This document shows positions 21,636 to 50,415 of a stretch of 54,177 nt of DNA, piece by piece. A program made the translations under genes and the position numbers. The notes below the pieces were generated by a model. The model had not been told where the DNA came from. It made no database searches and saw only the letters and a list, made by a program, of their open reading frames with translations. The DNA comes from Deltaproteobacteria bacterium (GTDB lineage Bacteria; Desulfobacterota; GWC2-55-46; JADFVP01). The stretch spans positions 1-54,177 of the forward strand of contig JAJRZX010000041.1 in NCBI GenBank assembly GCA_024275045.1, given 5' to 3'. The first letter of the stretch is position 1, and every line of letters begins with the position of its first letter.

Positions 21636-21747
21636 TTTTTTACCTGTCCTGCTGAGGCGGGGTATGTGCAGGCTTTTGCCTATCCCGTGATTTTTTGTAG
21701 GCGCACGAGGCGGGGGAGGGGTTAATTATAAATGAGGAGGTTTTGTA

Positions 21748-22158: not shown

Positions 22159-22180
22159 GAGCATGGAGCGCGTGTAAGGT

Positions 22181-23848: not shown

Positions 23849-23860
23849 CAATAGCGGCTG

Positions 23861-23869
23861 TGCTATAAT
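23861..23869 (+). promoter_or_regulatory. Extended -10 element before ubiE
   Basis: TGCTATAAT 22 nt upstream of the ubiE ATG. Confidence 0.45.
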
Positions 23870-23891
23870 AAAAAAAGGGCCTTATAAAAAT

Positions 23892-24650: not shown

Positions 24651-24663
24651 AGAGGTTTTTTTC

Positions 24664-25101
24664 ATGGATGAAGCCGTAAATAATAAGAAGGCCGTGGAAG
24701 AGAGGCTTAAAAAGACCTGCAAAAAGGCGACGAGGCTTTTATTAAAGGCCACGCCCCTTGTCTTTGAGGGCCTTGCCGTTGGTGCGGTATTATCGGCTAT
24801 GATAACGCGTAACCCCGAGCTTGGCGCCCGTCTTGGCGAACTTGACGGCAAGGTCTTTTTTTTCGAGGCCACGGATATCGGCAGAGGGTTTTTTCTCCAT
24901 ATAACTGATGGGCAGATAAAGGTGGTGCTTCATATGAGCGGCGCGCCTGATGTTACCATGAGAGGGGATGTTACGGTGCTCATGGATGTGCTTGCGGGGC
25001 GCGTAGACCCTGATACTGTTTTTTTCTCACGGAAACTGGAGATAGAGGGAGATACGGCTACGGCCATACACTTTAAGAATATACTGGCAAGTTTTTATTG
25101 A
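24664..25101 (+). CDS. ubiT: SCP2-domain ubiquinone accessory factor, UbiT-like
   Basis: C-terminal VDPDTVFFSRKLEIEGDT...FKN matches the UbiT DPDTLFFxRRLxIEGDT motif; no UbiJ-type C-terminal coiled coil. Confidence 0.82.
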   Translation: MDEAVNNKKAVEERLKKTCKKATRLLLKATPLVFEGLAVGAVLSAMITRNPELGARLGELDGKVFFFEATDIGRGFFLHITDGQIKVVLHMSGAPDVTMRGDVTVLMDVLAGRVDPDTVFFSRKLEIEGDTATAIHFKNILASFY

Positions 25102-33412: not shown

Positions 33413-33925
33413 ATGATCCTGAAAAAACTCGTCATATTGGCGGCAGTATTTTTCGTGGCCTTTGTCATAGGCTACGGCATTGATGCCGCTCTTCGCACGG
33501 ATCTTGATCCTGTGCAGCCCATAAAATTCAGCCATAAGATACATGCAGGCACAAACGAGATACCGTGTCAGTTCTGCCATATTTACGCCGAGAGGTCCCG
33601 TGTCTCCGGTGTGCCTAATGTGCAGCGCTGCATGGGGTGCCACAAGATTATTAAGACAGAGAGCCCTGAGATAAAGAAACTCACGGCATACTGGGATAAA
33701 AGAGAACCAATTCCGTGGACAAAAGTACATAATCTCCCCGATTATGTCTACTTCCCCCACAAAAGGCATATAAGGGCAGGGCGTAAATGCGCTGATTGCC
33801 ACGGCGACATCGCTTCCATGGACAGGGTAAGACGCGTCTCCTCTTTGCAGATGGGGTGGTGCCTGCAATGCCACAAGAAGTACGATGTTAAGAACGGTCA
33901 GGCATGCTGGACCTGTCACATATAA
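33413..33925 (+). CDS. actA: Pentaheme cytochrome c, ActA/QrcA-type
   Basis: N-terminal TM, QPIKFSHKIHAG, five CxxCH (CQFCH, CMGCH, CADCH, CLQCH, CWTCH), LPDYVYFPH. Confidence 0.9.
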   Translation: MILKKLVILAAVFFVAFVIGYGIDAALRTDLDPVQPIKFSHKIHAGTNEIPCQFCHIYAERSRVSGVPNVQRCMGCHKIIKTESPEIKKLTAYWDKREPIPWTKVHNLPDYVYFPHKRHIRAGRKCADCHGDIASMDRVRRVSSLQMGWCLQCHKKYDVKNGQACWTCHI

Positions 33926-34110
33926 GGCGTGGGGGGTAGTTGCGGGTGCGGGGAGCCTTGTCTAAGACGGGCAGCTAAAGGGGCCGGGGCGATACGGTTG
34001 GGGATGAGTTAGCAAGGGGAGTGAGGATCAGGGGAGGCTTTAAGGTCTGTCTGTAACGGGTCAGTGAGAGAGAAGGGCCTTTAAATATACAGTTTTTTAT
34101 CGGACAAAAG

Positions 34111-36411
34111 ATGAAACGTAGAGATTTTCTAAAATATATCGGAGTGGGCGGCGCAGGCGTAGTTCTCGGCGGGGTTTTTGGCAAGATCTCAAGGCCGCCG
34201 GGTGCAAAGCTTATCCCCTACCTTATCCCGCCTGAGGATATTATCCCCGGCGTGGGGGCATGGTATTCCAGCCTCTGCACGCAGTGCCCTGCGGGCTGCG
34301 GCACCGTGGTAAAGGTCATGGACGGCAGGGCCAAGAAGGTAGAGGGCAACCCTCTGCATCCGGTGAACAAGGGAAAGCTCTGCGCAAGGGGGCAGGCAGG
34401 TCTTCAGGCCCTATATAACCCGGATCGCATAAAGGCGCCCATGAAGAGAAAGGGCACCCGCGGTAACGGCAAGCCCGGAGAATTTGAAGAAATATCATGG
34501 GAGCGGGCATTAAAGATTCTTTCCGCCAATATTAAGGACCTCTCAGATAAGGGCGAGGCAGAGGGGGTTTATCTCCGTACCAATACAGTTCGCGGTCATC
34601 TGGATAAGCTTTTTGGCGGATTCATGGAGAGCCTTGGTTCACCCAATTACAGCCAGTACGAGCTCTATGATTACAGGAGCCTGCGTTTTGCCAATAAGGC
34701 GGCCTTTGCCATTGACGCCATACCTCATTACGATATTGCCAACGCCTCCATGGTACTCTCCTTTGGGGCTGATTTTAACAGCACCTGGATATCTCCGGTT
34801 AACTACGGTTATGCTTACGGCGAGATGCGCCAGGGCAGCGGAGTAAGAGGCAGGCTCGTTCATGTGGAGCCGCGTATGTCCCTCACCGGCGCCAATGCCG
34901 ATGAGTGGGTGCCCATAAGGCCGGGTACAGAGGGCATCTTCGCCCTCTCCATAGCATACGCGATTCTGGACGCCGGGCTTTATTCCGGTAAGGACGTGGC
35001 AAAGTGGAAGACAGCCCTTGCGGGTTTTTCCCCATCAGCTACGGCAAGGACAACAGATGTGGCCGCAGCAAGGACGCTTAAGCTTGCAAAGGAGTTTGCC
35101 GCAGCTGAGAGGCCCCTTGCCATAGGCGGAGAGGTTGTTGCAGGTTATGATAACGGCGTAAGCAGCCTGCTTGCCGTAAATATATTAAATTACCTCGGCG
35201 GCGGCACCGGCGCTAAAGGCGGTATCATACCTAACCCTGATGAGCTCTTTTTTGCCGACGGCACTCAAGAGATGGACTTTGAGAGAGGCATCGCGGGTTT
35301 TGTTAAAGACGCGGCCTCCTCAAAAGTTAAAGTCCTTATGCTTCATAACACAAATCCGCTCTTTACCACCTCGCCGAAACTCGGCCTGGAGCTTGCGCTT
35401 AAAAAAGTGCCCTTTATATGCGCCATGACATCTTTTATGGATGAGACCTCGGCCATGGCCGACCTTATCCTGCCCCTGCATACCTCTTTTGAGGAGTGGG
35501 GCGATGACTTTACCAATCCTGCCGTGGGCGCGCCTGTGGCTACTCTCATGCAGCCCGTTGTAAGCCCTGTCTTTAATACCAGGGGGGCGGGAGACATCTT
35601 CGTGGCGCTTGCCAGCGCTATTGGCGGTAAAGTGGCCGAGGACCACCACTGGATGAGTTATGCCGAGTATCTCCGTGCGGCCTGGAATGATTTATATGAT
35701 AAGAACGCTGAGATCTCACGCGGAACCCTTACCTTTGACGGGTTCTGGAACAAGCTTCTGCAGGAGGGCGGCTGGTGGAAGAAGGCCGTTAATCCGTCTG
35801 GAGTTAAGGCCCTTTCAACTACGCCTAAAAAGGTGGGCAAGGGGCTCTTCGCCAAACCTGCCAAGTTTGCCGGCAAGATGTCTGATTATCCCCTCTACCT
35901 TATGCTCTACCCTCAGGCAGGGCACCTTGACGGGCGCGGGGCTAACCTGCCCTGGCTCCAGGAGCTGCCCGACCCCATTACCACGGTGGTTTGGGGAAGC
36001 TGGGTAGAGATAAACCCCGTAACAGCAAAGCAGCTTGGCTTTAAAGAAGGCGATAAGGTAAGGATTGAGTCCCCCTATGGTTCCATCAAGGCATTTGTCT
36101 TTCCATACGCCGGGATCAGGCCCGATACAGTGGCCCTCCCCATAGGGCAGGGACACAAGCTCTACGGCAGGTACGCCAAGGGCCGCGGTGTTAACCCCAT
36201 TGAGATAATTCCCGCTGTGGCGGATAAAGACTCCGGTGCCATGGCCCTTAACTGCACACGCGTGAAGGTAGAGCACTCCGGAGGCTCGGGACGCCTTGTT
36301 AAGATTGAGCCCACGGCCAAGGAGCACGGCAAGCCCACTCAGCACGGCAGGCCCATTGTGCAGACTATTACCAGCCGCGAGTATAAAAGACTTAAAAAGG
36401 AGACTACATAA
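34111..36411 (+). CDS. Molybdopterin-oxidoreductase-like subunit of alternative complex III (ActB1/QrcB-like), Tat-exported
   Basis: MKRRDFLK Tat motif, IPYLIPPEDIIPG, CTQCPAGC-x27-C, ANLPWLQELPDP.T..W. Confidence 0.88.
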   Translation: MKRRDFLKYIGVGGAGVVLGGVFGKISRPPGAKLIPYLIPPEDIIPGVGAWYSSLCTQCPAGCGTVVKVMDGRAKKVEGNPLHPVNKGKLCARGQAGLQALYNPDRIKAPMKRKGTRGNGKPGEFEEISWERALKILSANIKDLSDKGEAEGVYLRTNTVRGHLDKLFGGFMESLGSPNYSQYELYDYRSLRFANKAAFAIDAIPHYDIANASMVLSFGADFNSTWISPVNYGYAYGEMRQGSGVRGRLVHVEPRMSLTGANADEWVPIRPGTEGIFALSIAYAILDAGLYSGKDVAKWKTALAGFSPSATARTTDVAAARTLKLAKEFAAAERPLAIGGEVVAGYDNGVSSLLAVNILNYLGGGTGAKGGIIPNPDELFFADGTQEMDFERGIAGFVKDAASSKVKVLMLHNTNPLFTTSPKLGLELALKKVPFICAMTSFMDETSAMADLILPLHTSFEEWGDDFTNPAVGAPVATLMQPVVSPVFNTRGAGDIFVALASAIGGKVAEDHHWMSYAEYLRAAWNDLYDKNAEISRGTLTFDGFWNKLLQEGGWWKKAVNPSGVKALSTTPKKVGKGLFAKPAKFAGKMSDYPLYLMLYPQAGHLDGRGANLPWLQELPDPITTVVWGSWVEINPVTAKQLGFKEGDKVRIESPYGSIKAFVFPYAGIRPDTVALPIGQGHKLYGRYAKGRGVNPIEIIPAVADKDSGAMALNCTRVKVEHSGGSGRLVKIEPTAKEHGKPTQHGRPIVQTITSREYKRLKKETT

Positions 36412-37170
36412 GTGTCCGGTGTGATAGATAAGATAAAAGAGCGCCTCAAGGACTTCAGGAGGCCCGGTTATTATAAGGAGTTCGATCACCACTACGCCAT
36501 TGTCATTGACGTGGACAGGTGCAACGGATGCGAGGCATGCGTGGTATCCTGTTACGCAGAGAACAACCTGCCCGTTGTAGGCGAGCAGGGCTGTGAGGAC
36601 AACAGGGTATTTAACTGGCTCCGGATAGAGCGCTACATTGAGGGCGAGTACCCTGATGTGAAGGTCAAATTCATCCCCGTAATGTGCCAGCAGTGCGACG
36701 CCGCTCCATGTGAGATAGGTTGCCCGGTTTACGCCACCTATCACAATCAGGACGGGCTTAATGTGCAGGTCTACAACCGCTGCGTGGGTACCTTTACCTG
36801 CGCCACATACTGCCCTTATGATGTGAGGCGTTTTAACTGGTTCAGCTACAAATGGGATAAACCCCTTGATGAGCAGCTGAACCCCGATGTTACGGTACGC
36901 GAGATGGGTGTTATGGAAAAATGCACCTTCTGCATCCAGAGAATAAGAGGCGTCAACGATAAGGCCAAGGACGGGAAGAGAAAGGTAAAGGACGGCGAGA
37001 TTCAGACCGCGTGCGCCCAGTCCTGTCCCACCGGGGCCATTACATTTGGAGATTTAATGGACCCCGAGAGTAAGGTCTCAAAACTGGCGGCAAGCAAGCG
37101 CGGGTATAAGCTCTTTGAGAACCTTGAGACCAAACCATCTGTCATCTACCTGAAAAGGGTAATGGATTAA
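36412..37170 (+). CDS. Fe-S subunit of alternative complex III (ActB2/QrcC-like)
   Basis: CNGCEAC..C, CQQC..PC..CP, RCVGTFTC..CPY (Thr for Cys, [3Fe-4S] type), MEKCTFC; AAGGAG RBS before GTG. Confidence 0.9.
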   Translation: MSGVIDKIKERLKDFRRPGYYKEFDHHYAIVIDVDRCNGCEACVVSCYAENNLPVVGEQGCEDNRVFNWLRIERYIEGEYPDVKVKFIPVMCQQCDAAPCEIGCPVYATYHNQDGLNVQVYNRCVGTFTCATYCPYDVRRFNWFSYKWDKPLDEQLNPDVTVREMGVMEKCTFCIQRIRGVNDKAKDGKRKVKDGEIQTACAQSCPTGAITFGDLMDPESKVSKLAASKRGYKLFENLETKPSVIYLKRVMD

Positions 37171-38555
37171 TGTCTAATAACGAGTCCAAGAGGGTTATAC
37201 CATACAGCGAAGTTAACGACGACGTACTTCGCACCATGACCAAGACAGGCCCGGGCTACTACGTGGCCCTTGTGGTCTGCTTTTTACTTGCCGCAGGGCT
37301 CTGGGGCGGCGCGTGGTTTTATCAGATTTACGTAGGTCAGGGAGTCTCCGGGCTGCAGACCCCGGCTTTCTGGGGCATCTATATCGCCAACTTCATCTTC
37401 TGGATAGGTATCAGCCATTCGGGCACCCTGCTATCTGCCATTCTATTCATAACGCAGACCCCGTGGCGTAGATCTATTTACCGAAGCGCCGAGGCCATGA
37501 CGTTTTTCTCCGTTATGACGGCGGCTATCTTTATCTTTGTTCATATGGGCAGACCCTGGAATTTTTACTGGACCATGCCGTATCCCAACCAGCGGCTCCT
37601 CTGGGTGAACTTCCTCTCTCCCCTTATGTTTGATGTTCTTGCCATCAGCACATATGCCACGTCTTCCATGATATTCCTTTACTTCGGTTCAATACCGGAT
37701 CTTGCCGCCGTAAGGGACAGGACCACAGGCTGGAGAAGAGAGTTCTACGGATGGCTCTCTCTGGGCTGGAGAGGTACGGACGCGGAGTGGCACTGGCTTA
37801 ATAAGGCATACGGCTTCTTCGCAGTCTTTATTATCCCACTTGCCGTATCCGTGCACTCCATTGTCTCATGGGACCTTGCCCTCTCCATGGTGCCGGCCCT
37901 TAATAAGACGATATTCGCCCCGTACTTTGTTGTTGGAGCCATATACTCGGGCTCCGCGGCTATTGTTACCCTTATGATATTTGTGAGAAAGTTCCTTAAG
38001 GTGGAGAAATACATCACCATCGACCACCTCTCAAAGCTCTGCATGCTCCTTCTTGTAATGTCCCTTATATGGAGCTATATCAACGTCATGGAGGTCTTTA
38101 CGGGTTGGTACGCCAATACCAATTATGAGAATGAGGCCATGATCTACCGTATGTTCAAGAGCCCCATTGCTATTATATACTGGCTCATGATAGCGACAAA
38201 CACTGTTGCGCCTCTCTTCCTTATGTTTAGAAGCATAAGAAGGTGCGTGCCTATAATATTTTTCATATCCATCGGTATAAACGTGGGCATGTGGATAGAG
38301 AGGTATCTTCTCGTTGTATCCACTCTGCCGAGAAAGTACTTCCCCTTCATGTGGAACAGTTATCTGCCGAGCCTTGCGGAAATATCCATGACAGTGGGCT
38401 CGTTCTTTTTCTTTGCCGTATTATTTCTGCTCTTTATTAAACTATGGCCCAGTATCTCTATCTACGAGGTTAAGGAAGATATAGGGATACCCAGGAAAAA
38501 GCCTCATACAAAGGAAATGGATCATGAAGATGGCTCCCCTACTTGGTATATATAA
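37170..38555 (+). CDS. actC: NrfD/PsrC-family quinol-binding subunit ActC
   Basis: WGIYIANFIFWIGISHSGTLLSAIL, HMGRPW, SPLMFD, SVHSIVSWD, PYFVVGAIYSG, GMWIERY. Confidence 0.92.
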   Translation: MSNNESKRVIPYSEVNDDVLRTMTKTGPGYYVALVVCFLLAAGLWGGAWFYQIYVGQGVSGLQTPAFWGIYIANFIFWIGISHSGTLLSAILFITQTPWRRSIYRSAEAMTFFSVMTAAIFIFVHMGRPWNFYWTMPYPNQRLLWVNFLSPLMFDVLAISTYATSSMIFLYFGSIPDLAAVRDRTTGWRREFYGWLSLGWRGTDAEWHWLNKAYGFFAVFIIPLAVSVHSIVSWDLALSMVPALNKTIFAPYFVVGAIYSGSAAIVTLMIFVRKFLKVEKYITIDHLSKLCMLLLVMSLIWSYINVMEVFTGWYANTNYENEAMIYRMFKSPIAIIYWLMIATNTVAPLFLMFRSIRRCVPIIFFISIGINVGMWIERYLLVVSTLPRKYFPFMWNSYLPSLAEISMTVGSFFFFAVLFLLFIKLWPSISIYEVKEDIGIPRKKPHTKEMDHEDGSPTWYI

Positions 38556-39057
38556 GCACGCCGATACCATGATGGAAGCGGCCGACAAGCTGCAGAACAC
38601 GGGGTATGAGGTGACGCTGTTCTCGCCTGTGCCGCTGGGCCATGAGCCCGAGTACAGCGCCGTTCAGCAGCGCCATAATTATGTGCGCTACTTTACCCTC
38701 TTCGGCGGGGTAGCAGGTTTTATCTTCGGTATTTTGCTTACTCTGGGCACGGCCGTTATGTATATACTTCCAAGGGGCGGAAAACCGGTCTTTGCCATGA
38801 CACCAACCCTGCTTATCTCTTACGAGACAGCCATACTCTTTGGTGTTCTCTGGACCTTAATGGGTTTTCTTGTTATCGCAAAGCTACCCTATTACGGGAA
38901 AGACAGGCTGTACGACCCTGTGGTTAATGTAGATGGTTTTGGTCTTCTTGTTGATGGAATCCGTGATGATATGTACGATGTGGTCGAGGGGGTACTCAGA
39001 GAATTCGGGGCCCACGAGGTTAGACTCCTTACACGCGGGATAGAAGAAGAGGCTTGA
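38524..39057 (+). CDS. actD: ActD (DUF3341) membrane subunit
   Basis: FSPVPL, two TM helices, GGKP...P...YE..ILF; follows actC. Confidence 0.85.
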   Translation: MKMAPLLGIYKHADTMMEAADKLQNTGYEVTLFSPVPLGHEPEYSAVQQRHNYVRYFTLFGGVAGFIFGILLTLGTAVMYILPRGGKPVFAMTPTLLISYETAILFGVLWTLMGFLVIAKLPYYGKDRLYDPVVNVDGFGLLVDGIRDDMYDVVEGVLREFGAHEVRLLTRGIEEEA

Positions 39058-39578
39058 TGAAAACTCTAAGGATAATTATATTGGGCACTCTTATGGCCCT
39101 TATTGCGCCGGCCATGGCTCATGCATGGCCCTGGTCCTGGGATATGTACCACCAGAAAAATCACAGGGCACAGGAAGAGCCGGCGCCCAAGCAGCCCGAG
39201 GGTATTGTAAACACAGAGGGTAAACCCTTCTTTGCCAATGACAGGGTGGAGTCCTCGGCCATTAAAAGTCCCGTTGCACCTGATGCCGCCTCCATAAAAA
39301 GAGGACGTAAAATGTACAGGACATATTGCCTGCCCTGTCACGGCGCAACAGGGCACGGAGACGGGCTTGTAGGTATAAAGTACATACCTCCAACGGACCT
39401 TACCATGGATTATGTTCAGAATAAACTGGACGGAGATATCTTCTATACCATTACCAACGGCGGTCTGGCTGTCATGCCTTCTTACAGGGACTCAGTATCA
39501 AAGACGGACAGGTGGCATATAATAAATTATATCAAGCACGGTCTAACCAGCGAAAAGACGGCGAAGAAAGATGAATAA
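39054..39578 (+). CDS. actE: Monoheme cytochrome c ActE
   Basis: Signal peptide, DMYHQ, YCLPCHG..G.GDG, DGDIFYTITNG, MPSY, DRWHIINYI. Confidence 0.88.
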   Translation: MMKTLRIIILGTLMALIAPAMAHAWPWSWDMYHQKNHRAQEEPAPKQPEGIVNTEGKPFFANDRVESSAIKSPVAPDAASIKRGRKMYRTYCLPCHGATGHGDGLVGIKYIPPTDLTMDYVQNKLDGDIFYTITNGGLAVMPSYRDSVSKTDRWHIINYIKHGLTSEKTAKKDE

Positions 39579-40752
39579 ATACGGCTTCAGGTCCATGTTA
39601 CTACCGGTCCTCCTTATAATTCTGGCAAATGCTATCTTTACCTTTGCCTATGTGGCCTCAACCAATAGCGAGAGTCAGACCCTCTGGGGGCTGCTGGCTG
39701 TTAATTATCTCTTTTTTCTCGGCCTTACTCAGACAGGCATTATCTTCTCCACTATCATGCGTGTGGCAAAATCCACATGGGCCACTTATTTCAACCGTCT
39801 CGGAGAGATACTCACGCTTGCCACTTTGCCTGTTGCCGTTATAGGCTTTCTGGTGCTTTTTTACGGCGGAGCAGAGCATCTTTTCTACTGGATGGGCGCT
39901 CACGGCGGCGAGGCCGCAGGTCACGGAGGCGGCGAGATGAGCCCCTGGCTTAACAAAAACTTTTTCCTCTGGAGATACGTAGCCACAATGGTGCCGTTTT
40001 ATTTCCTGAGCTACCTGTACTTTCGCGGCAGCCGCGCTGAAGAGACTCACAGAGAGGTGCCGAATTGTCTTAGAGTAAAGATGAGTTTTCTCGGCGGTTT
40101 TATTATGTTCTTCTACGTCTTTGCCAATACCAATCTGGCCTGGGACTTTGCCATGATGAACATCCCCCACTGGGAGAGCACAATATTTCCCGGTTACTAC
40201 TGGGTGGGTAATCTCCTCGTAGGCCCGGCTTTTCTCTTTATACTTGCCCGTGTATTTATCGGCAGAAGACCCGGCGTACCTTTTGACCTTGATTACATCG
40301 AGCCTATGGGTAAGCTGCTCATGGGTTTCACCCTGACGTGGATATACATGTTCTGGTCTCAGCACATAGTCATGTGGTACCCTGAGCTCTCGCACAGGTA
40401 CGGCCCTCTCCTTGAGAGGATGAGCGGAAACTATCTCCTTGTTTTCGTGGCCATGATGCTGGCCTTATTTATCATTCCATTCTTTATGCTTGTATTCCGC
40501 AGGATAAAACTTACTGTCTTCGGCCTTACCACAGTGGCTGTTATATTATGTTTTGGTATGTGGCTGAACCGTTACCTCATGATTATACCCACCTACTCCG
40601 ACGGCTCTACACCAACGCTTGGGACTTATGTCAATATATCCCTTGCCCTGGGTTTTATTTCCGCGGCCCTGCTCTCTCTTATATGTTTTTTCAGGCTTTT
40701 TCCCGACGTTACCATAAGAGCGAAAGGCGCAGCCCCATCCAAGGGGCATTGA
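39571..40752 (+). CDS. actF: ActF membrane subunit (NrfD paralog)
   Basis: About 10 TM segments, PWLNKNFF, WDFAMMNIPHWESTIF, W.YMFWSQHIVMWY; last gene of the act operon. Confidence 0.85.
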   Translation: MNKYGFRSMLLPVLLIILANAIFTFAYVASTNSESQTLWGLLAVNYLFFLGLTQTGIIFSTIMRVAKSTWATYFNRLGEILTLATLPVAVIGFLVLFYGGAEHLFYWMGAHGGEAAGHGGGEMSPWLNKNFFLWRYVATMVPFYFLSYLYFRGSRAEETHREVPNCLRVKMSFLGGFIMFFYVFANTNLAWDFAMMNIPHWESTIFPGYYWVGNLLVGPAFLFILARVFIGRRPGVPFDLDYIEPMGKLLMGFTLTWIYMFWSQHIVMWYPELSHRYGPLLERMSGNYLLVFVAMMLALFIIPFFMLVFRRIKLTVFGLTTVAVILCFGMWLNRYLMIIPTYSDGSTPTLGTYVNISLALGFISAALLSLICFFRLFPDVTIRAKGAAPSKGH

Positions 40753-41041: not shown

Positions 41042-41407
41042 ATGAAAAAGAGTTTAATATTTTTACCGGCACTGGCCCTTTTAACGCTCGTACTCGTACC
41101 TGATGTATGGGCCGAGGGAGCCGAAGGCGCGCATCAGGCCGCGGGTAACGCAAAGATACTGTTCTTTACAGGCGTAGGCATGGCCGCGGCAATAGGTATG
41201 GCCATTGCTTCCTTTGGTACCGGTCTTGGTAAGGGTAACGCCGTAAGAGGCGCTGTTGAAGGAATCGCAAGAAACCCCGGCGCATCGGGTAAGATTCTCT
41301 CAACACTGCTTATCGGTCTTGCCATGATAGAGTCCCTTGCCATATACACTCTCGTCATAGCCCTCATACTTCTCTTCGCTAACCCTTTCCTCGGATTAAT
41401 CGGCTAA
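41042..41407 (+). CDS. atpE: F-type ATP synthase subunit c with N-terminal signal-like extension, orphan copy
   Basis: GxGxG helix, EGIARNP loop, [11 protein letters not shown] with carboxylate Glu97, LFANPF end. Confidence 0.95.
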
Positions 41408-41666: not shown

Positions 41667-41699
41667 AAGGCTCTGTCATCTGAGGCAGGGCCTTTTTTT
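41667..41699. terminator. Hairpin terminator between convergent genes
   Basis: AAGGCTCTGTC-ATCTGA-GGCAGGGCCTTTTTTT. Confidence 0.6.
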
Positions 41700-42588
41700 A
41701 GTGGCCTTTAAGCAGGACTTCCTCTATCTCTGTCTCCCGCTCACTGTCTACGGCAACCTTATGATTAAACTCCAGAAAACTCTCTCTGGTTATCTTAAGT
41801 CTGTATATGCCGGGCTTTAAGTAAAGGCGCTGCGGGCTAAGCCCGTAGTATATACCGTTAAGGTAGATCTTTGCCCTTTCAGGCTCAGTCGTGATACTTA
41901 GTACTCCCCTTGAAATCTTCTGATGATTATCCGCTCTTGTCTCTATCGCAAAACTCTTATTGCCGTATGAACTTTGCCCTGACTCTCTATCTCTTAAGGC
42001 AAGCTCAGTACGGGTGAGGGCTTTTTTTATAACTTTTTCAAGAGACGCGGAGATATATTTTTTGATGCTCCTTCTGGAATCACCGGATACGCCTGCGTAT
42101 CTGCTCTCTGATATATCGACAATTCCGCTACAAATATTTACGTTACTGCCAACCCTCTTAAACTCCATGTACAGAGTTATATTAATCCTGTCTTTTGAGG
42201 CAATCTCAAGGTGAAACTTTTGCAGCTCTGTCTTTAGTTCATACTCGATTTTTTTTTTACCAGAGCTCTCTGCCACGGTGAATCCACCACGGGTAAACCC
42301 GGCAATCATGGCCTCGTGTACTGCCACGGCAGGGTTTTCTGATAAGATAAGCTCATTACCTGATATATTAACTACCGTGGAGCGAAGTTCGCCTATCTTA
42401 TTTATATTATTTATTGCACCGCGGCTGTCTTGCACCGGTGCGATGTATATGGAGAGTCCGTTTTTATTCTCAGGCACGGGTGCGTTCTTTGAAGGTGTAT
42501 AGGCATACTGCAGCGGTGCGCCGCAGCCGAATGCAAGGGCGCTTAAGATGATTAAGAGGTAAATATTGCTGTATACTCTGTTTTTCAT
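41698..42588 (-). CDS. Lipoprotein with YajG-like region and C-terminal PEGA domain
   Basis: Lipobox LAFGC; C-terminal LSITTEPERAKIYLNG.YYG.SP..L.LKPG.Y.LKI (PEGA). Confidence 0.75.
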   Translation of the reverse strand: MKNRVYSNIYLLIILSALAFGCGAPLQYAYTPSKNAPVPENKNGLSIYIAPVQDSRGAINNINKIGELRSTVVNISGNELILSENPAVAVHEAMIAGFTRGGFTVAESSGKKKIEYELKTELQKFHLEIASKDRINITLYMEFKRVGSNVNICSGIVDISESRYAGVSGDSRRSIKKYISASLEKVIKKALTRTELALRDRESGQSSYGNKSFAIETRADNHQKISRGVLSITTEPERAKIYLNGIYYGLSPQRLYLKPGIYRLKITRESFLEFNHKVAVDSERETEIEEVLLKGH

Positions 42589-42791
42589 TCTCTTCCCAAA
42601 AGCTATGTTAGTGCCAGTAAGAAGGGGACAGGCCGAGGCGCTTACATGAAACTCTTGCCTCTATCTGTCCCCCTTTTTTCTTTTCCCCTTCAACCCTTTG
42701 CCCCAATTCTCTTAAAGAGCCTAAGCGCCCCTTTTGTCCATATTACCCTTGCTTTTAAGTACCCATTGCCTCTTTGAACCTGCCCTGTACC

Positions 42792-44018
42792 TTAAAAGGC
42801 AGCGAAGATCATTAAGGTTGTAAGCTGGTCTCCGTTGGCCAATTCGTTATTGGCAGGGATATCAAAGAAGTCACCTGAGTTAAAGCTGTGGTTTACCTGC
42901 AGCTCGAAGTTCTGTGCCAGCAGGAAGGTTGCGCCCACTGTTACGGCGGACTCTGTGCTTGGACCTATGGCCCCGGAGTTACCATCGCGGTAACCCGCTG
43001 CAACGGTGACTCTTCCCGGCAGTACACCAACCTCGGCAAGTACAGACCAGGCTCTCTTGTCACCGGGGTTGCTGTTGAAAATATTCATGGGTTCGTTTGC
43101 TGTTGAGCCCTGGGCCTCGGCATAGTTAAGATAGATACCAATTGGCAGGCTCAGTATAGAGCCCTGGGCCTGCGCGTCCAAGGCCCAGCCTCTGGCGCTC
43201 TCGCGTGTGCCGTTGCCGAGTTTTGTTGTGCCCAGAAAGAGCTGACCTCCTGCGGCAAGGTCCCAGCCCGCAAGTGTACGTGTGCCCACAAGGCGCAGGT
43301 ACTGGAGGAAGGGCCCTGAGTCAGAGGTGCCCGCCTCAGGCTGCCATGGAGTAAAACTAAAGTAGCCCGTGTTGTGAGAGGCCACAAAGGCTACGCCCTG
43401 CGCCGCGTGTTTCAGACCTACGTATTGAATGGCTGAGATCTCGGCCTTATGTTCAAGGACGCGTATATTGGCTACTGCCCCGGTGTTGAGCAGCTCAAAG
43501 GCAAACTGCGGGCCAAGACCGGCCGTGGCAAAGGGGACAACGCTAAAGTGAGCGCTCTTTACATCAAAGCCTATAGGTGCCTTGAAGTTAGCGAACATGG
43601 AGCTGCCGGAGTCTGCCATCTGCCCCTCAAGGAGAAAGCCGATGCGTTCGCCGATGCGCCCGGCGAGAAAGAGCGCGGCCTCATCTGGAAACTGTAACTC
43701 ACCCTTATTGGTACCCGAGTCGTTCACGTCTCCATTGGTCTTCTGAAAACGTACCTTTGTAACTATGGAAGCGTTCAGAGTTGCCGGCAGGGAGAGGAGA
43801 TCGCCTTCCACAAGGCTCTGGCCCCCTACCATGGTAAAGCCGTTTGCCTTAAAGACCCTGCCAAAGGCGTTAAGGCTCGGGTAGTGCTGGTAGTGACAGG
43901 TATTGCATGCCATACCCGTCTGTCTTGCAAAAGAAGGGATAGCCCAGGAGACATCAGGCCATAGAGATAGGATCGTCAGCATAATCGCGGTGAAGGTAAA
44001 AAAGATGAACTTTTTCAT
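42792..44018 (-). CDS. cyc2: Cyc2-type fused monoheme cytochrome-porin (candidate outer-membrane Fe(II) oxidase)
   Basis: Signal peptide, then AIPSFARQTGMACNTCHYQHYPSLNAFGRVFKANGF (PxFARQT, CxxCH, PxLxxFG), amphipathic beta-strand body and C-terminal Phe. Confidence 0.88.
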   Translation of the reverse strand: MKKFIFFTFTAIMLTILSLWPDVSWAIPSFARQTGMACNTCHYQHYPSLNAFGRVFKANGFTMVGGQSLVEGDLLSLPATLNASIVTKVRFQKTNGDVNDSGTNKGELQFPDEAALFLAGRIGERIGFLLEGQMADSGSSMFANFKAPIGFDVKSAHFSVVPFATAGLGPQFAFELLNTGAVANIRVLEHKAEISAIQYVGLKHAAQGVAFVASHNTGYFSFTPWQPEAGTSDSGPFLQYLRLVGTRTLAGWDLAAGGQLFLGTTKLGNGTRESARGWALDAQAQGSILSLPIGIYLNYAEAQGSTANEPMNIFNSNPGDKRAWSVLAEVGVLPGRVTVAAGYRDGNSGAIGPSTESAVTVGATFLLAQNFELQVNHSFNSGDFFDIPANNELANGDQLTTLMIFAAF

Positions 44019-44265
44019 GATACCTCCTTGTTCATATGTGTCTCTCTTGACGGTAGGTGTCTGGCGGGCTGTGGATGCGAAAAGTTGTTGGGACTAAATG
44101 GCACAAAGGTCATGCCATACTTAATATTAATATAAATATCGGTTCTTTTGAGAAGGACTTTAATTATGAATGCTCTCGCTGGGCCTAACCTTAGATATTG
44201 ACAGTATGGTGGTTTTTTGTTTTGATATAAGTCCAGCAGGAAACCACCTCGCTCTCTTTTATATT

Positions 44266-44352
44266 GCCCGAGTGGCGGAACTGGTAGACGCACGGGACTT
44301 AAAATCCCGAGTCTTAACGGACGTGCCGGTTCGACCCCGGCCTCGGGCACCA
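44266..44352 (+). tRNA. tRNA-Leu (anticodon TAA)
   Basis: GCCCGAG/CTCGGGC acceptor stem, D-loop GGTAGAC, anticodon loop CTTAAAA, long variable arm, GGTTCGAC T-loop, encoded CCA. Confidence 0.96.
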
Positions 44353-44933: not shown

Positions 44934-46352
44934 TTGGCCATTGCAAAATCCGTAGAAAAACTTCTGGTACGGTATAAGAGTTTTTTTCCCTATATACATG
45001 CGCTCATGTTTCTTGTTTTCGGGGCATTGATCTTTATCCCTGCCTTTCTGCCCTTTCCGGGAGATGAGGCCACGATTGGGAATAATTTTACACTCTTCGC
45101 CAGATTTGCCGTCTGGGGGCTATGGTTCCCCTTGATGCTGGTCTCGGTTATATTCTTTGGCAGGCTCTGGTGCGGGCTTTTATGTCCGCAGGGAGCGCTT
45201 AGCGAGTTTATGAGCCGATGGGGGCTAAACAGGCACGTGCCAAAGTGGATGCGTAGGGCATGGATACCCATAGCGGCATTTTTGGTAATAACCATTACCG
45301 GCAAGCTTCTTGGTGTAGACGAGTTTCCGCTGGGTACCTTTGAGATACTCGGGACCACTATGGTGCTCGCGGCCATTGTGGGGTTTTTATATGTAAGGGG
45401 CATGAGGCCCTGGTGCCGCTATCTCTGTCCCATTGGGGCGCTGCTTGGAGTGTTCTCACGTATGGGAGCGGTAAGTTTTGAGAGAACTGAAGACCATGGT
45501 GAGGCCGCAGCAGAGAGACGAAGAGAGGGATGGGATAGAAGGGGCAAGAGTGAGAATTCTTACAGAGGGCCTGAGCGGCGAAAGTGTCATAGAAGAACCA
45601 ATATATGTCCCACATTTATAAACCCCAATACAAAGGCTGCCAGTTCACACTGCATTGAATGTTTTAAATGCGTTAATAAGGATAACCAACCGTACTCACT
45701 TCACCTTAAGCTCAGGCGCCCGGGTGTGGAGATTGAGGAGATAGAGAAAAGGGATCCCAACAGGTGGGAGGTTATATTCCTCTTCGCGGCTACTGGTCTG
45801 GGGCTTGGTGATTTTCACAGCGAGGCGGGCACTTTCTTTGCAAAGTACACGGCTGCGCTGGGCACGCTCCTTGGCAAACTTGGCCTTGCCGAACTCATGG
45901 GCAGAAGCGGGCCGCGGTGGCTCATGATGAATTACCCTGAATACGGCGAGGTGCTCACGTGGTCAGACTCTGTAGCTTTAATAACATTCATCACCGCGTT
46001 CATGCTTGGCGTACTGTTTATCTTATACGCACTTACCGCTACCTCGGCCTTTATCCTTGATAAGTACAGGGATAACCTGGCCCTGGGTTATCTTTACGCT
46101 CCCATTGCTCTGGTCTCCCTTGTGGTGGGTGTTGGCGGGGTAATCTTCAGTACCCCCGATGTTTTTGGTTTAAGCGAGAGCGTGGTCCACGTTGCGGAGG
46201 CTGCAACCTTTGCGCTTGGAGGGCTGTGGAGTCTATACCTTGCCCTTAAGCTTACGGCCCATGCCTCTGCGGCACGTCAGGCCATGGCAATGGCTCCAAA
46301 CCTCCTTGGCATCACGGTGGTAGCTTTTCTGTGGTTTCAGGTACTTTTTTAG
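44934..46352 (+). CDS. Membrane polyferredoxin of the NapH/FtrD family
   Basis: NNFTLFA.F..WGLW.P, GRLWCGLLCPQGALSE, RPWCRYLCPIG, CPT...CIECFKC; many TM helices. Start codon uncertain. Confidence 0.8.
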   Translation: MAIAKSVEKLLVRYKSFFPYIHALMFLVFGALIFIPAFLPFPGDEATIGNNFTLFARFAVWGLWFPLMLVSVIFFGRLWCGLLCPQGALSEFMSRWGLNRHVPKWMRRAWIPIAAFLVITITGKLLGVDEFPLGTFEILGTTMVLAAIVGFLYVRGMRPWCRYLCPIGALLGVFSRMGAVSFERTEDHGEAAAERRREGWDRRGKSENSYRGPERRKCHRRTNICPTFINPNTKAASSHCIECFKCVNKDNQPYSLHLKLRRPGVEIEEIEKRDPNRWEVIFLFAATGLGLGDFHSEAGTFFAKYTAALGTLLGKLGLAELMGRSGPRWLMMNYPEYGEVLTWSDSVALITFITAFMLGVLFILYALTATSAFILDKYRDNLALGYLYAPIALVSLVVGVGGVIFSTPDVFGLSESVVHVAEAATFALGGLWSLYLALKLTAHASAARQAMAMAPNLLGITVVAFLWFQVLF

Positions 46353-46413
46353 GTCTATAATCTTACTCCTTTTAAACTCTGCTGTAGGTGCGCATGCGTG
46401 CCTTCTCCTTTTG

Positions 46414-46447
46414 TAAAGTGCCCGAGACCATGGTCTCGGGCACTTTA
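46414..46447. repeat. Perfect 34-bp palindrome
   Basis: TAAAGTGCCCGAGACCA|TGGTCTCGGGCACTTTA. Confidence 0.9.
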
Positions 46448-46785
46448 ACTCTCACCCCCTTTTTTACCTGCAAATGCCCACTTCTTCGTAAGACAGAACA
46501 CTCTGCCAGACAGTGGTAAAATAAAAAAATCCGTGTAAAAACACCGGTGCTTTACGGATTATAAGACCTTGAAGTAATCCTCCTGGATTTTTTTCTCCTC
46601 TTTTACGCAGGGCTTGCTGCGTTTTTTTCCGGCATAAACAAAGGTCCTGTAAGTATATGATATTTCAGGTGAAACCCCGTGGCCATCTCTGCTTATGCCC
46701 GGTTTTTTAAATAAAAACAGTACTTTTAAGAGCCAACTTGTCTTAAATTATCACCTTTTATTTTGTTTTTTTCCTCTCCAAACCT

Positions 46786-46794
46786 TGCTATAAT
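46786..46794 (+). promoter_or_regulatory. Extended -10 element upstream of the NrfC/NrfD module
   Basis: TGCTATAAT; inverted repeat AAGCATA-N12-TATGCTT follows at 46824-46849. Confidence 0.45.
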
Positions 46795-46999
46795 TCAAAG
46801 TACAGAATTAGGGCAATGTACAAAAGCATATATCTTGAATTGTATGCTTCAGGGGGTACGGGGTTTTTGGCGGCATGTACGGGGCCTGAACTCTCTCGCA
46901 AAGGCTCTCAAAGGGTACTGAGTTTTATCTCCCTGTATTATGAGGTTCTGTGGTACCGCAGGTGGTGCGAGGTTTTTTAAGCATAAGGAGGGGGATCAT

Positions 47000-47311
47000 A
47001 TGGCTGAGTGTAAAGACAAACCCGTTGAATCTGTAGATAAGAGCTTGAGTAATAAGTTGGAAAAAAATATGACGAGGCGTAGTTTTATTAAGAGCACCGT
47101 GGTTGCCGGGCTCGCAGTTGCCGGCGGAGCCGCGGTAGCTAAAAAAACAATGCAGGCGGTTCTGAAGGAGGACACCAAAAAACTCTACAGAGCGGATGAG
47201 CTGGGTGTTGAGCGTACCTGGAAAGACAGAAAGTTTGAACTCATGAGCAAGAACGAGAAGGCAGAGATGGTCTCCGCTCTTATTGACTCTTATGAATCGG
47301 TAAAAAAATAA
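47000..47311 (+). CDS. Small protein with twin-arginine-like signal, unknown function
   Basis: AAGGAGGGG RBS before ATG 47000; MTRRSFIKS followed by a hydrophobic segment. Confidence 0.75.
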   Translation: MAECKDKPVESVDKSLSNKLEKNMTRRSFIKSTVVAGLAVAGGAAVAKKTMQAVLKEDTKKLYRADELGVERTWKDRKFELMSKNEKAEMVSALIDSYESVKK

Positions 47312-47355
47312 GCGCGTTTTCTGTAATATCAATAATATCAGCGGAAGAGGTTTTC

Positions 47356-48369
47356 ATGACAAAAGAGAATAAAAAGGGACCAGAGACTGATTCTCCAGGG
47401 GCAGGGAAACGCCGTAAGTTCCTTAAGGATATGGGTAAAGTTGGTATTGCCGCGGCCATACTCGGAGCCACCGAGGGGCTCTCGGCAAAGGAAGCCGATG
47501 CGCGTACAACATGGGCCGAGTACTTTCAGAAGAACTACAGGCTTATGACGGATGATGAGAAGAAAGAGGCCATCGCACGGCTTGAGGAAAGGTACACTGA
47601 GGAGTTCAAAAAAAATGTCACTGTAGACGATACTCCGGCCATGGAAGGGGTGCTCTTTGGCATGGCCCTTAATATCCAGAAGTGCATTGGGTGCAGAAGG
47701 TGCGTTTACGGCTGTGTTAAGGAGAACAACCAGTCACGCTCTGAGAAACAGATTCAGTGGATAAGGGTTATTGAGATGGAGAAGGGGAGCTTTTCTCCCA
47801 AAAAGCTGCAGGATGGAAATATTCAGACAGGGGCCTTTGCCGGAGAGAATGCCGGTGTTACCCTTGAGGGAGAGCACTACTACGAGCCTCCCCGTGTCCC
47901 GGAAAAAGGGCATTTTTACTTCCCCATAGCCTGTATGCAGTGTGAAAAACCCCCCTGTGTCAAGGTCTGTCCGGCGCGCACAACATACCGTGAGCCCGAC
48001 GGCGTAGTTGTTATCGACTACAACTGGTGTATTGGTTGCAGGATGTGCATTACCGCATGTCCGTACTGGGCAAGGCGCTTTAACTGGGGTACGCCTGAAC
48101 TGCCCACAGAAGAGCTTAATCCCGTGACCCACTATCTGGGAAACCGTCCAAGGATGATGGGGGTAGCAGAGAAGTGCACCTTCTGTCTACAGAGGACAAG
48201 AAAAGGCAGGTTCACGGCATGCGTTGAGGCCTGTCCCGTGGGAGCCCGCAAGTTTGGCAACCTTCTCGACCCTGAGAGCGAGGTGCGCAAAGTTATAGAG
48301 AAAAAGAGGGTCTTCAGGCTGAAAGCTGAGCTAAATACATACCCTAAATTCTTTTATTTTATAGATTAA
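47356..48369 (+). CDS. Tat-exported 4x[4Fe-4S] subunit (NrfC/PsrB/DsrO family)
   Basis: KRRKFLK, CIGCRRC..C, CMQCEKPPCVKVCP, CIGCRMCITACPY, EKCTFC..ACVEACP. Confidence 0.9.
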   Translation: MTKENKKGPETDSPGAGKRRKFLKDMGKVGIAAAILGATEGLSAKEADARTTWAEYFQKNYRLMTDDEKKEAIARLEERYTEEFKKNVTVDDTPAMEGVLFGMALNIQKCIGCRRCVYGCVKENNQSRSEKQIQWIRVIEMEKGSFSPKKLQDGNIQTGAFAGENAGVTLEGEHYYEPPRVPEKGHFYFPIACMQCEKPPCVKVCPARTTYREPDGVVVIDYNWCIGCRMCITACPYWARRFNWGTPELPTEELNPVTHYLGNRPRMMGVAEKCTFCLQRTRKGRFTACVEACPVGARKFGNLLDPESEVRKVIEKKRVFRLKAELNTYPKFFYFID

Positions 48370-48378
48370 GAGGTGTAA

Positions 48379-50415
48379 GTGAGAAATATTCTTAGATTCG
48401 CCGTAGATGTTTTGCTCTATGCCTTCACGGGCGGCTCAAAGCTCTTTTACATATGGCTTGGCTTTCTCTCTGTTCTGGCCCTGATGATGATTTACGGTTC
48501 CTACCTGCAGACCGTAAACGGCATGGTGGTTACCAACTACAACGACCAGGTCAGCTGGGGCATATACGAAGCGCAGTTTATCTTTCTTGTAGGTGTGGCC
48601 GCCGCCGCCGTGACGATAATCTTCCCGGCATATGTCTATAAACACAAGTATATGAAAAATCTTGTGATTATAGGCGAGCTGCTGGCCATCTCATCTATCT
48701 ACATGGTCCTGCTTTTTATCATGCTTCACATGGGCAGACCTGACAGGCTCTGGCACATGATGCCTATTGTGGGTATCTTTAATTTTCCAAACTCCATACT
48801 CGCATGGGACGTAATGGTAGTTAACGGCTACTTTTTTATCAATGTCACAGCCGCATTCTACTACCTCTATACAAAGTACCGGGGCAGGGAACTGAATATG
48901 ACCTTTTACAAACCCCTTGTCTACCTCTCCATTGTCTGGGCCGTCTCTATTCATACGGTTACGGCATTTCTCATAAGCACGCTGCCGGCCAGACCCATGT
49001 GGTACAACTCCATAATGCCCATAAAGTTTATAACCACGGCCTTTGCTGCCGGCCCGTCCATGATAATCATCGCCTTTCTTATCATCAGAAAGGTAACAAG
49101 GCTGAAGATCGAGGACAAGGCTATTGATATGCTCTCCCAGATTATAGCCTGGTCCTTAACTATAGTTATTTTTCTGGGGCTATCGGAGGTTGTTACAGAG
49201 CTCTATCATGTTACAGAGCACTCTTTCTCTCTGCAGTATCTGATATTCGGACATGAGAGTTTCAGAGGTCTGGTGCTGTGGTACAGGTCTGCCGTAATCC
49301 TGCTGCTCTTCTCTTTTGTGATATTTATTATTCCACAGCTCAGGAAGAGCCGTACCTTCTGGCTGCCCATCGCCTGCGTGGCCACATTCGTGGGTATCTG
49401 GATAGATAAGGGCATGGGCCTTGTGGTGCCTGCCTTCATACCAAGCCCTATCGGTGAGTTCTCGGAGTATACGCCTTCAATGATAGAGATAATCAATGTC
49501 CTTGGTGTCTGGGCAACGGGGTTATTTCTCTTTACCGTTATGACGAGGGTGGCCATAGGCATTGCCTCGGGGGATCTGAGACACCAGCCCAGGGAAATGT
49601 GGCGCCTCTCGTCTCAATGGAAGAGCAGGGGCAAGGCGCTGTATAAAAACCTTGTGGTGGCCGCTGTTCTTTTTTCTGCCGCCTGCTTTGCCTTGCCTGC
49701 GATAGCTACCGCTAAGCATGGAGACGCAGAGTCCATTGTGACTGAAGAGCCCTCGGAGTGTTTTGAGAGCAGAGAGGTCTACTCAACAAGGCAGAGAAGA
49801 GAGATAGCCCCCGGTGTCTCAAATATAAAGTGCTCGAAGACCACAGGGGCGGTGCTCTGGTTCGGAGACCCTTTTGACGGTACTGTGCCCATGGGAGATA
49901 TGCCCGTAGAGGGCGCCTACTCGCATGAAGAGGCGGTGATTAAGCCAAGGACAAAGCAGCTCCACTGGTACATGCCCTGTACCAGCTGCCACAATGGTGA
50001 GGCCGTTCCTTATCCCAAGAGTAAGGAGCCTCGTCTGCTCACCATGCACACTGATATAGTGGGCAACTCCCTGAGCCTGCAGCACGGCAGGGGGGCCATA
50101 TGGTGTCTGGATTGTCATAACGCCAGGAACAGGGATTACCTTATTGATCACCGCGGTAAGAAAATAAGTTTTAACCAGCCTCAGAGGCTCTGCGGAAAGT
50201 GTCACGGTCAGATCTACGGCGACTGGAGGCTGGGAATACACGGTAAAAGGATAGGCGAGTGGTCCAGCGGGGCCAAGAAGAGATGGTGGGTCTGTACGGA
50301 ATGTCATAACCCGCATCTGGTGCAGGTAAAGAGGTTTGAGCCCATTAAACCCGAGCCCAGACCGGATTACCCGCGTACAAGGACCAAGGCCGATTATGAG
50401 AACGGCAAACATTGA
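48379..50415 (+). CDS. NrfD/DsrP-family membrane subunit fused in frame to a tetraheme cytochrome c
   Basis: VSWGIY, HMGRPDRLWH, SILAWD, SIHTVTAF, WIDKGMG in about the first 400 aa; CTSCH, CLDCH, CGKCH and CTECH in the C-terminal part. Confidence 0.88.
   Translation: MRNILRFAVDVLLYAFTGGSKLFYIWLGFLSVLALMMIYGSYLQTVNGMVVTNYNDQVSWGIYEAQFIFLVGVAAAAVTIIFPAYVYKHKYMKNLVIIGELLAISSIYMVLLFIMLHMGRPDRLWHMMPIVGIFNFPNSILAWDVMVVNGYFFINVTAAFYYLYTKYRGRELNMTFYKPLVYLSIVWAVSIHTVTAFLISTLPARPMWYNSIMPIKFITTAFAAGPSMIIIAFLIIRKVTRLKIEDKAIDMLSQIIAWSLTIVIFLGLSEVVTELYHVTEHSFSLQYLIFGHESFRGLVLWYRSAVILLLFSFVIFIIPQLRKSRTFWLPIACVATFVGIWIDKGMGLVVPAFIPSPIGEFSEYTPSMIEIINVLGVWATGLFLFTVMTRVAIGIASGDLRHQPREMWRLSSQWKSRGKALYKNLVVAAVLFSAACFALPAIATAKHGDAESIVTEEPSECFESREVYSTRQRREIAPGVSNIKCSKTTGAVLWFGDPFDGTVPMGDMPVEGAYSHEEAVIKPRTKQLHWYMPCTSCHNGEAVPYPKSKEPRLLTMHTDIVGNSLSLQHGRGAIWCLDCHNARNRDYLIDHRGKKISFNQPQRLCGKCHGQIYGDWRLGIHGKRIGEWSSGAKKRWWVCTECHNPHLVQVKRFEPIKPEPRPDYPRTRTKADYENGKH

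Follow-up and report, generated by a model that had tools for sequence, protein, structure and literature searches.

A Cluster 1-type cyc2 gene and its conserved neighbourhood in an uncultured deltaproteobacterial lineage

The cyc2 locus and the predicted fold of its product

We examined a 54,177-nucleotide stretch of DNA from a Deltaproteobacteria bacterium (contig JAJRZX010000041.1; this whole stretch is called the window below) and, within it, the gene cyc2, which is predicted to encode a fused monohaem cytochrome c-porin. Iron-oxidising bacteria employ Cyc2 proteins, outer-membrane pores that carry a haem of their own, to draw electrons from dissolved iron. The gene is an ATG-initiated open reading frame (ORF) in the ORF list of the window, and its product begins with MKKFIFFTFTAIMLTILSLWPDVSWAIPSFARQTGMACNTCHYQHYPSLNAFGRVFKANGFTM and ends in ...TTLMIFAAF. 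The frame, its length and the final phenylalanine are as an initial annotation of the window, made from the sequence alone, had given them, and the first residues agree exactly. The protein carries a single CxxCH motif (C38-N-T-C-H42), and cyc2 is present in one copy in the 2.28-Mb genome. The only tRNA gene found by ARAGORN in the window, tRNA-Leu(taa), lies 247 nt upstream of cyc2. The features of the locus are collected in Table 1.

Table 1. Features of the cyc2 locus, with positions in the window
Feature	Position	Strand	Basis
Alternative complex III (ACIII)-like operon: pentahaem ActA/QrcA-like, molybdopterin-like ActB1, iron-sulfur (FeS) ActB2, NrfD-type ActC, ActD, monohaem ActE, NrfD-type ActF	33413..40752	+	Pfam and NCBIfam
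Lone ATP-synthase subunit c-like gene, flanked by the ACIII operon and the PEGA gene	41042..41407	+	PF00137, 54.8 bits
Lipoprotein with LptE/PqiC/PelC-like N-domain and C-terminal PEGA domain, 203 nt downstream of cyc2	41698..42588	-	PEGA PF08308, 47 bits
cyc2, fused monohaem cytochrome c-porin, Cluster 1 type, 408 aa	42792..44018	-	ORF, homologues, tree, hidden Markov model (HMM) scores, AlphaFold2 (AF2) model
Beta-barrel porin body, about residues 63-408, C-terminal Phe	42795..43832	-	DSSP strands in AF2 model, Foldseek
Haem motif block: A26-I-P-S-F-A-R-Q-T34, G-M-A, C38-N-T-C-H42, Y-Q-H-Y, P47-S-L49	43872..43943	-	Sequence
Signal peptide (roughly residues 1-26) with a hydrophobic core; S-W-A just ahead of I27	43941..44018	-	By eye from sequence
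Shine-Dalgarno sequence GGAGG, 4 nt before the cyc2 ATG	44023..44027	-	Sequence
tRNA-Leu(taa), divergent neighbour of cyc2, conserved synteny partner	44266..44352	+	ARAGORN; loci of relatives

By the sequence criteria of Keffer et al. 2021 (PMC8406198), a Cyc2 has a signal peptide, a single CxxCH with AxPxFAR[Q/K][T/Y] upstream of it and PxL four residues downstream, no fewer than 365 residues, and a porin body for which OprO and OprP serve as models. The window's protein has each of these features. The upstream stretch runs from A26 to T34 and is separated from C38 by G-M-A, the PxL element is P47-S-L49, with Y-Q-H-Y between it and H42, and the chain is 408 residues long. A signal peptide was read by eye from the hydrophobic N-terminus, where S-W-A precedes I27; in the structural model this region is a helix (residues 2 to 19) followed by a low-confidence linker.

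No Pfam or NCBIfam model matched the protein, and a PDB sequence search returned a chance match only (E = 1.8). Homologues were numerous: 1106 of the 8000 candidates scored had E <= 1e-3, and a library of 1.84 billion sequences gave 1838 representatives at that threshold, 145 of these at E <= 1e-30. The strict motif pattern was present in 202 of 270 homologues, always with three residues between the upstream motif and CxxCH (202/202), and R32, C38, C41, H42 and P47 were invariant across 93 aligned homologues. The AF2 model built on that 93-homologue alignment (pLDDT, the predicted local distance difference test score, 93.0; predicted TM-score [pTM], 0.88) consists of a small helical haem segment and a barrel. 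From residue 69 to residue 407, DSSP assigned 19 segments of strand, several being split, a result compatible with 16 strands. Foldseek matched the model to 259 PDB entries at E <= 0.001, the top ones being outer-membrane 16-strand porins, and among the matches listed the best query-normalised TM-scores were those of the Pseudomonas aeruginosa phosphate-selective porins OprO (4rjw, 0.55) and OprP (2o4v, 0.53). These are also the templates named in PMC8406198; they resemble the model in barrel fold but are only 8 to 10% identical to the window's protein and have no haem segment. Taken together, the full set of published sequence criteria and the predicted porin fold support membership in the Cyc2 family of cytochrome-porins. 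The initial annotation had named the gene cyc2 and proposed structure prediction of the barrel as a check, and the name stands.

Assignment of the protein to Cluster 1

Cluster names were anchored in this analysis via Zetaproteobacteria and Leptothrix ochracea sequences; the tree sample holds no named Gallionellaceae isolate and no Chlorobium ferrooxidans or Leptospirillum sequence. Scanning contigs with the pattern PxFAR[QK]-x4-CxxCH yielded at least 120 named loci, 80 of them with flanks, and an ORF carrying the motif was present in 119. A FastTree phylogeny of 88 full-length rows resolved three clades: one with FARKY in the motif (42 rows), one containing an Acidithiobacillus sp. (21 rows) and one with the window's protein (25 rows). 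The FARKY clade and the window's clade each include Zetaproteobacteria. Among 133 genomes of the class Zetaproteobacteria, a window-type query (locus L028) matched 117 at E <= 1e-5 and 99 at E <= 1e-30, and a FARKY-type query (L003) matched 40 at E <= 1e-30. McAllister et al. 2020 (PMC7029218) described Cluster 1 in all Zetaproteobacteria operational taxonomic units and Cluster 3 in fewer. Furthermore, the model of Ghiorsea bivora's Cluster 1 protein spans residues 23 to 389 (PMC13692758), which fits the window type (385 to 430 aa) and not the FARKY type (455 to 485 aa). P0166, which belongs to the window's clade, has Leptothrix ochracea proteins in its 90% cluster, and metagenome-assembled genomes (MAGs) of L. 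ochracea are reported to carry cluster 1 cyc2, their relatives carrying cluster 2 only (PMC11412304). Because of the Zetaproteobacteria counts, the Ghiorsea length and the L. ochracea anchor, we took the window's clade to be Cluster 1, the Acidithiobacillus clade to be Cluster 2 and the FARKY clade to be Cluster 3. Naming the window type Cluster 3 was also considered and was dropped on the same three grounds.

A second tree was computed with IQ-TREE from 56 rows (LG+C20+F+G4 with posterior mean site frequencies [PMSF], quick search) and agreed with FastTree on the three clades. The window's protein fell into a 33-row clade with Zetaproteobacteria, L. ochracea and a Nitrosomonadales MAG, supported by a Shimodaira-Hasegawa-like approximate likelihood ratio test (SH-aLRT) value of 99; the Mariprofundus isolates M. 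ferrinatatus, M. aestuarium and M. micogutta belong to this clade. Support was 100 for Cluster 2 and 80 for Cluster 3. Within Cluster 1, the window's Cyc2 belongs to a subclade of 12 rows (support, 89) from MAGs that carry the labels Thermodesulfobacteriota, Deltaproteobacteria and Nitrospirae, and this subclade adjoins a betaproteobacterial subclade, not the Zetaproteobacteria. Deltaproteobacteria and Nitrospirae sequences inside Cluster 1 are also described in PMC12442345.

Surrogate HMMs gave the same assignment. They were built from 120 Zetaproteobacteria-type sequences plus one of L. ochracea (Cluster 1), 21 rows (Cluster 2) and 42 rows (Cluster 3), with the window's own subclade excluded, and the window's Cyc2 scored 254.6, 92.6 and 94.2 bits against them, respectively. 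At the motif level, CxxCH[FY]Q was found in 102 of 121 Cluster 1 anchors and in 118 of 120 members of the window's nearest family, compared with 0 of 21 Cluster 2 and 0 of 42 Cluster 3 rows. FARKY was present in 38 of the 42 Cluster 3 rows and FARQT in none. The initial annotation had taken CxxCH-(F/Y)QH as the form resembling the Cluster 1 proteins of neutrophilic iron oxidisers. The [FY]Q part of that rule separates the clusters, but the histidine does not belong to it: this residue is present in 117 of 120 sequences of the window's nearest family and in none of the 121 Zetaproteobacteria-type anchors.

Tree, surrogate HMMs and motif counts together support placing the window's Cyc2 in Cluster 1, as the initial annotation had suggested when it proposed phylogeny as a check; the caveat is an approximately unbiased (AU) test in which the window's 12-row subclade was held together with 13 Cluster 3 rows (delta lnL, 21.5; p = 0.055), a value that falls narrowly short of rejecting that grouping. 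The test leaves some room for a place in Cluster 3 or in an unclassified cytochrome-porin group, with the likeness to Cluster 1 only superficial, but such a placement is very improbable in view of the clade shared with the Cluster 1 anchors in both trees, the distance between the HMM scores and the absence of FARQT and CxxCH[FY]Q from the Cluster 3 rows.

Cyc2PV-1 of Mariprofundus ferrooxydans and Cyc2TAG1_1 of G. bivora, both tested biochemically, share architecture, motif and major clade with the window's Cyc2. Both are predicted to have a 16-strand barrel and an N-terminal haem c segment, with which our model is compatible, and the Cyc2TAG1_1 construct is similar in length to the 408-residue protein studied here. 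However, the latter is only 26 to 30% identical to the five Zetaproteobacteria rows of the 93-homologue alignment. The Cluster 2 protein of Acidithiobacillus ferrooxidans is likewise a fused monohaem cytochrome-porin with FARQT before CxxCH (as seen in the Acidithiobacillus sp. locus L025), but Cluster 2 forms a separate clade, carries T-x-[FY]-P-[EQ]-L after CxxCH, the spacer being 3 residues, and reaches a greater length, 474 aa in L025. Cluster 3, comprising the Leptospirillum Cyt572 group and the second Zetaproteobacteria type, has the same overall architecture but lies on the other side of the tree, mostly with FARKY in place of FARQT, and its Zetaproteobacteria members are 457 to 473 aa long.

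Cluster 1-type genes can also occur in pairs. One Zetaproteobacteria MAG has tandem copies about 3.3 kb apart (L079:4914-6128 and L079 at about 8200-8714, on the same contig as L080), and another Zetaproteobacteria genome (G031) has two equal-scoring window-type copies 2.2 kb apart.

Conserved neighbours and inheritance of cyc2

We found cyc2 in 43 of 61 related genomes, counting that of the window: 7 of 8 in the same genus, 11 of 14 in family f1, 19 of 21 in family f8 and 8 of 17 in family f2. The sole same-genus genome that lacks it is 57% complete. Identity of Cyc2 follows kinship, from 88 to 74% within the genus and 67 to 49% within the family to about 50% within the order. For synteny, the cyc2 loci of 14 relatives were compared, and tRNA-Leu(taa) adjoins cyc2 in 11 of these, in families f1 and f8. 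Because the pair is kept in so many loci from two families, the tRNA adjacency is old synteny and not a mark of insertion. The conserved adjacency, together with the fall of identity with kinship, shows cyc2 to be an old resident of the lineage that has been kept vertically.

The initial annotation had considered the tRNA-Leu neighbour compatible with horizontal acquisition. A recent acquisition at this tRNA could also draw on the G+C content of cyc2 (54.7%, compared with 49.9% genome-wide), although this is a weak transfer signal taken alone, and on the frequent horizontal transfer that PMC12442345 describes for Cyc2 trees overall. We reject it as extremely improbable, since the synteny and the distribution among relatives contradict it and the flanks of the window's cyc2 consist of core respiratory genes, among which we saw neither an integrase nor a repeat. 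A much older transfer into the lineage, possibly in the ancestor of the order, is nevertheless likely because the subclade sits among proteobacterial sequences and because transfer is common in Cyc2 trees generally.

The conserved synteny of cyc2 with a PEGA lipoprotein gene and an ACIII operon is new here. The lipoprotein gene lies downstream of cyc2 in 11 of the 14 loci (families f1, f2 and f8), its product has an invariant lipobox cysteine (Cys22), and the stretch SRYAGVSGxSR is conserved. The predicted structure (pLDDT, 81.6) consists of the N-domain followed by the PEGA beta-sandwich, and the fold of the N-domain matches outer-membrane lipoproteins: DUF330 (2iqi), PqiC (8q2c), PelC, LptE and the CsgG N-domain. 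The lipoprotein diverges faster than Cyc2 (58% compared with 86% identity in the same relative), and a word-based search retrieved eight homologues. Outside the lineage, an HMM of the lineage's PEGA lipoproteins matched 1 of the 80 flanked Cyc2 loci of other taxa, that of a Rhodocyclales MAG (L053). Our literature search found no publication linking Cyc2 with PEGA, and PMC10654088 contains nothing on this lineage or on these neighbours. A complex prediction for Cyc2 residues 26 to 408 and lipoprotein residues 22 to 296 scored 0.00 against a mark of 0.32, which has no bearing either way. The PEGA lipoprotein may be an outer-membrane accessory of Cyc2. In the 203-nt spacer between the two genes (window 42589-42791, - strand), an inverted repeat, GGGGACAG ... 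CTGTCCCC, precedes a stretch rich in T, and this might serve as a partial terminator or an attenuator.

In 5 of the 14 loci, no more than about 5 kb separates the ACIII operon from cyc2, and in 6 of 14 the subunit c-like gene keeps its position; we saw no further ATP synthase genes next to it in the window. Past the tRNA, window 44934-50415 (+) holds a second quinone-linked module, made up of a NapH/CcoG-like membrane FeS protein, a small ORF of unknown kind, a DsrO-like FeS protein, which scores 187 bits against a cut-off of 200, and a DsrP-like NrfD protein, at 341 bits against a cut-off of 350, that is fused with a tetrahaem cytochrome. A cluster of UbiV (307 bits), UbiB/ABC1, UbiE and SCP2 genes at 20739-25101 (+) points to oxygen-independent ubiquinone synthesis in this sulfate-reducer-related lineage. 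Finally, 10463-11290 (-) contains a short COX1-like fragment (36 bits, profile positions 299 to 405) with one in-frame TGA, which may be what is left of a pseudogene or may read the TGA as selenocysteine; 3 of the 14 loci have tRNA-SeC genes close to cyc2.

Respiratory context and proposed function

The window's genome is 99.24% complete with 1.99% contamination. It encodes an operon for an aa3-type cytochrome c oxidase that includes CtaA and CtaB. A second haem-copper oxidase has a cytochrome c, a MoxR-type ATPase and a VWA protein as neighbours, and together they resemble a norCBQD cluster. Also present are narK and narGHJI (NarG, 1408 bits with a cut-off of 1084; NarH, 673 bits). In the narGHJI operon, a gene for a 188-aa monohaem cytochrome c that matched no family abuts the start of narG (G000:C32:16374-16940, - strand, equivalent to L162:8375-8941), and its product could link periplasmic cytochromes to Nar. 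There are 42 candidate c-type cytochromes, many of them periplasmic. They include proteins with 25, 21, 11, 7 and 6 haems, several c7-type trihaem domains and DmsE-like repeats, and the large ones suggest further capacity for extracellular electron transfer. At G000:C31:1034-6093 (-) and G000:C111:720-6438 (+), proteins with 25 and 21 CxxCH motifs stand side by side and the 11-haem protein has neighbours with 4, 4 and 6 haems.

Searches of the genome found no RuBisCO, no CdhC (carbon monoxide dehydrogenase/acetyl-CoA synthase [CODH/ACS]), no cytochrome b and no cd1 nitrite reductase, and DsrA had no match above the cut-off. Because no cytochrome b was found, the ACIII beside cyc2 is the only complex-III-type enzyme that we found. 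Autotrophy is still possible because of an ATP-citrate-lyase (ACL)-like gene pair (G000:C21:10241-14303, equivalent to L161:3242-7304). ATP-grasp and Citrate_bind domains are encoded by its first gene (421 aa), and the second (917 aa) combines CoA_binding and Succ_CoA_lig domains with a weak citrate-synthase tail.

The closest published analogue is Candidatus Ferristratum of the DTB120 lineage, nearest to Desulfobacterota, which McAllister et al. 2021 (PMC8114936) proposed as a nitrate-reducing iron oxidiser. Its MAGs carry narGH and cNOR, with coxAB in one MAG, and cyc2 and narG were expressed in situ and after Fe(II) addition. Its Cluster 1 Cyc2 forms a clade of its own next to Gallionellaceae and Chlorobi, just as the window's subclade adjoins a betaproteobacterial one. 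The window's genome has the corresponding core set of Cluster 1 cyc2, narGHJI, norCBQD-like cluster and aa3 oxidase, and because such sequences are known within Cluster 1, we regard the window's gene as a further member of a described kind. There are two differences. The window's genome has the ACL-like locus, whereas the paper's account includes no autotrophy genes, and ACIII lies beside the window's cyc2, whereas the term is absent from the main text of PMC8114936. The hosts of Cyc2PV-1 and Cyc2TAG1_1 are aerobic autotrophs that use the Calvin-Benson-Bassham cycle with bc1 and cbb3; the host studied here instead has ACIII, aa3 and Nar.

By analogy with these systems, we favour with moderate confidence the reading that this Cluster 1 Cyc2 oxidises Fe2+ and passes the electrons to the aa3 oxidase or, via ACIII, to NarGHI. 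The oxidation of Fe2+ would take place at the barrel's haem, on the model of the tested proteins of M. ferrooxydans PV-1 and G. bivora, the single c-type haem being carried by the N-terminal 35-residue segment. The electron would then move to periplasmic monohaem or c7-type cytochromes. With O2 present, these could deliver it to the aa3 cytochrome c oxidase; alternatively, cytochrome c could feed an ACIII running toward quinone, and the ubiquinone pool could supply the NarGHI nitrate reductase. Given the fitting electron-transport set and the Ca. Ferristratum analogue, Fe(II) oxidation by the host, as the initial annotation had proposed, is plausible.

Several observations weigh against this reading. 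ACIII was judged not to be required for iron oxidation in Zetaproteobacteria (PMC7029218), and Cluster 1 includes organisms never shown to oxidise iron (PMC12442345). The 25-, 21- and 11-haem cytochromes and c7-type trihaem proteins are typical of metal reducers, and because of them other extracellular electron-transfer roles are possible. Nor do the counts among relatives indicate a tight module: narG is present in 33 of 43 cyc2-positive and 12 of 18 cyc2-negative genomes, with no clear association, and ActD in 27 of 43 and 6 of 18, a loose tie only, both counts being descriptive since the relatives are not independent. Three same-genus genomes with cyc2 gave no narG match.

One alternative is that the protein is a genuine Cyc2 whose partner is not Fe2+ but Mn(II), reduced humics or another soluble shuttle, or that electrons flow outward in metal reduction. 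The rich complement of multihaem proteins, the presence of sulfur oxidisers in Cluster 1 (PMC12442345) and the failure of cyc2 to track narG are all in its favour. We nevertheless think it unlikely, because Fe(II) oxidation is the only function demonstrated for Cluster 1 in PMC8406198 and PMC13692758, because cyc2 of Ca. Ferristratum rose after Fe(II) addition and because the multihaem genes lie on contigs other than that of cyc2.

A more elaborate form of the Fe(II)-oxidising reading has the host as a facultatively autotrophic, nitrate- and O2-respiring iron oxidiser in which cyc2, the PEGA lipoprotein and ACIII act as one unit. The lipoprotein would be an accessory subunit of Cyc2, reverse ACIII would feed NarGHI through ubiquinone, and CO2 would be fixed by an ACL-dependent reductive tricarboxylic acid cycle. 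We hold this combination to be doubtful. If it were true, an outer-membrane accessory lipoprotein would be a role not described for any Cyc2.

Finally, a heterotrophic nitrate or oxygen respirer might oxidise Fe(II) for protection or as an ancillary valve and not for energy, for example, by keeping Fe(II) oxidation outside the cell while nitrite forms. Ca. Ferristratum is described as heterotrophic with optional Fe(II) oxidation (PMC8114936), and the searches that found neither RuBisCO nor CODH/ACS agree with such a lifestyle, but the ACL-like two-gene locus argues against it and the conserved position of cyc2 by ACIII suggests integration into the respiratory chain. We consider such a valve distinctly improbable.

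The find is sound but ordinary: this cyc2 typifies a branch known from earlier descriptions of sulfate-reducer relatives that respire nitrate. To our knowledge, no unambiguous bacterial isolate exists for nitrate-dependent anaerobic iron oxidation. For neutrophilic iron oxidation no better marker gene than cyc2 is available, and it is often over-read; here, the call is solid at the level of family and cluster, and the gene has long been retained by vertical descent in an uncultured lineage that is related to sulfate reducers and respires nitrate and oxygen. This lends further support to the published idea that organisms of this kind occupy the niche of anaerobic nitrate-dependent iron oxidation. 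The fixed neighbourhood of tRNA-Leu, PEGA lipoprotein and ACIII offers concrete candidates for the path by which electrons may travel from Cyc2 to the quinone pool in this lineage.

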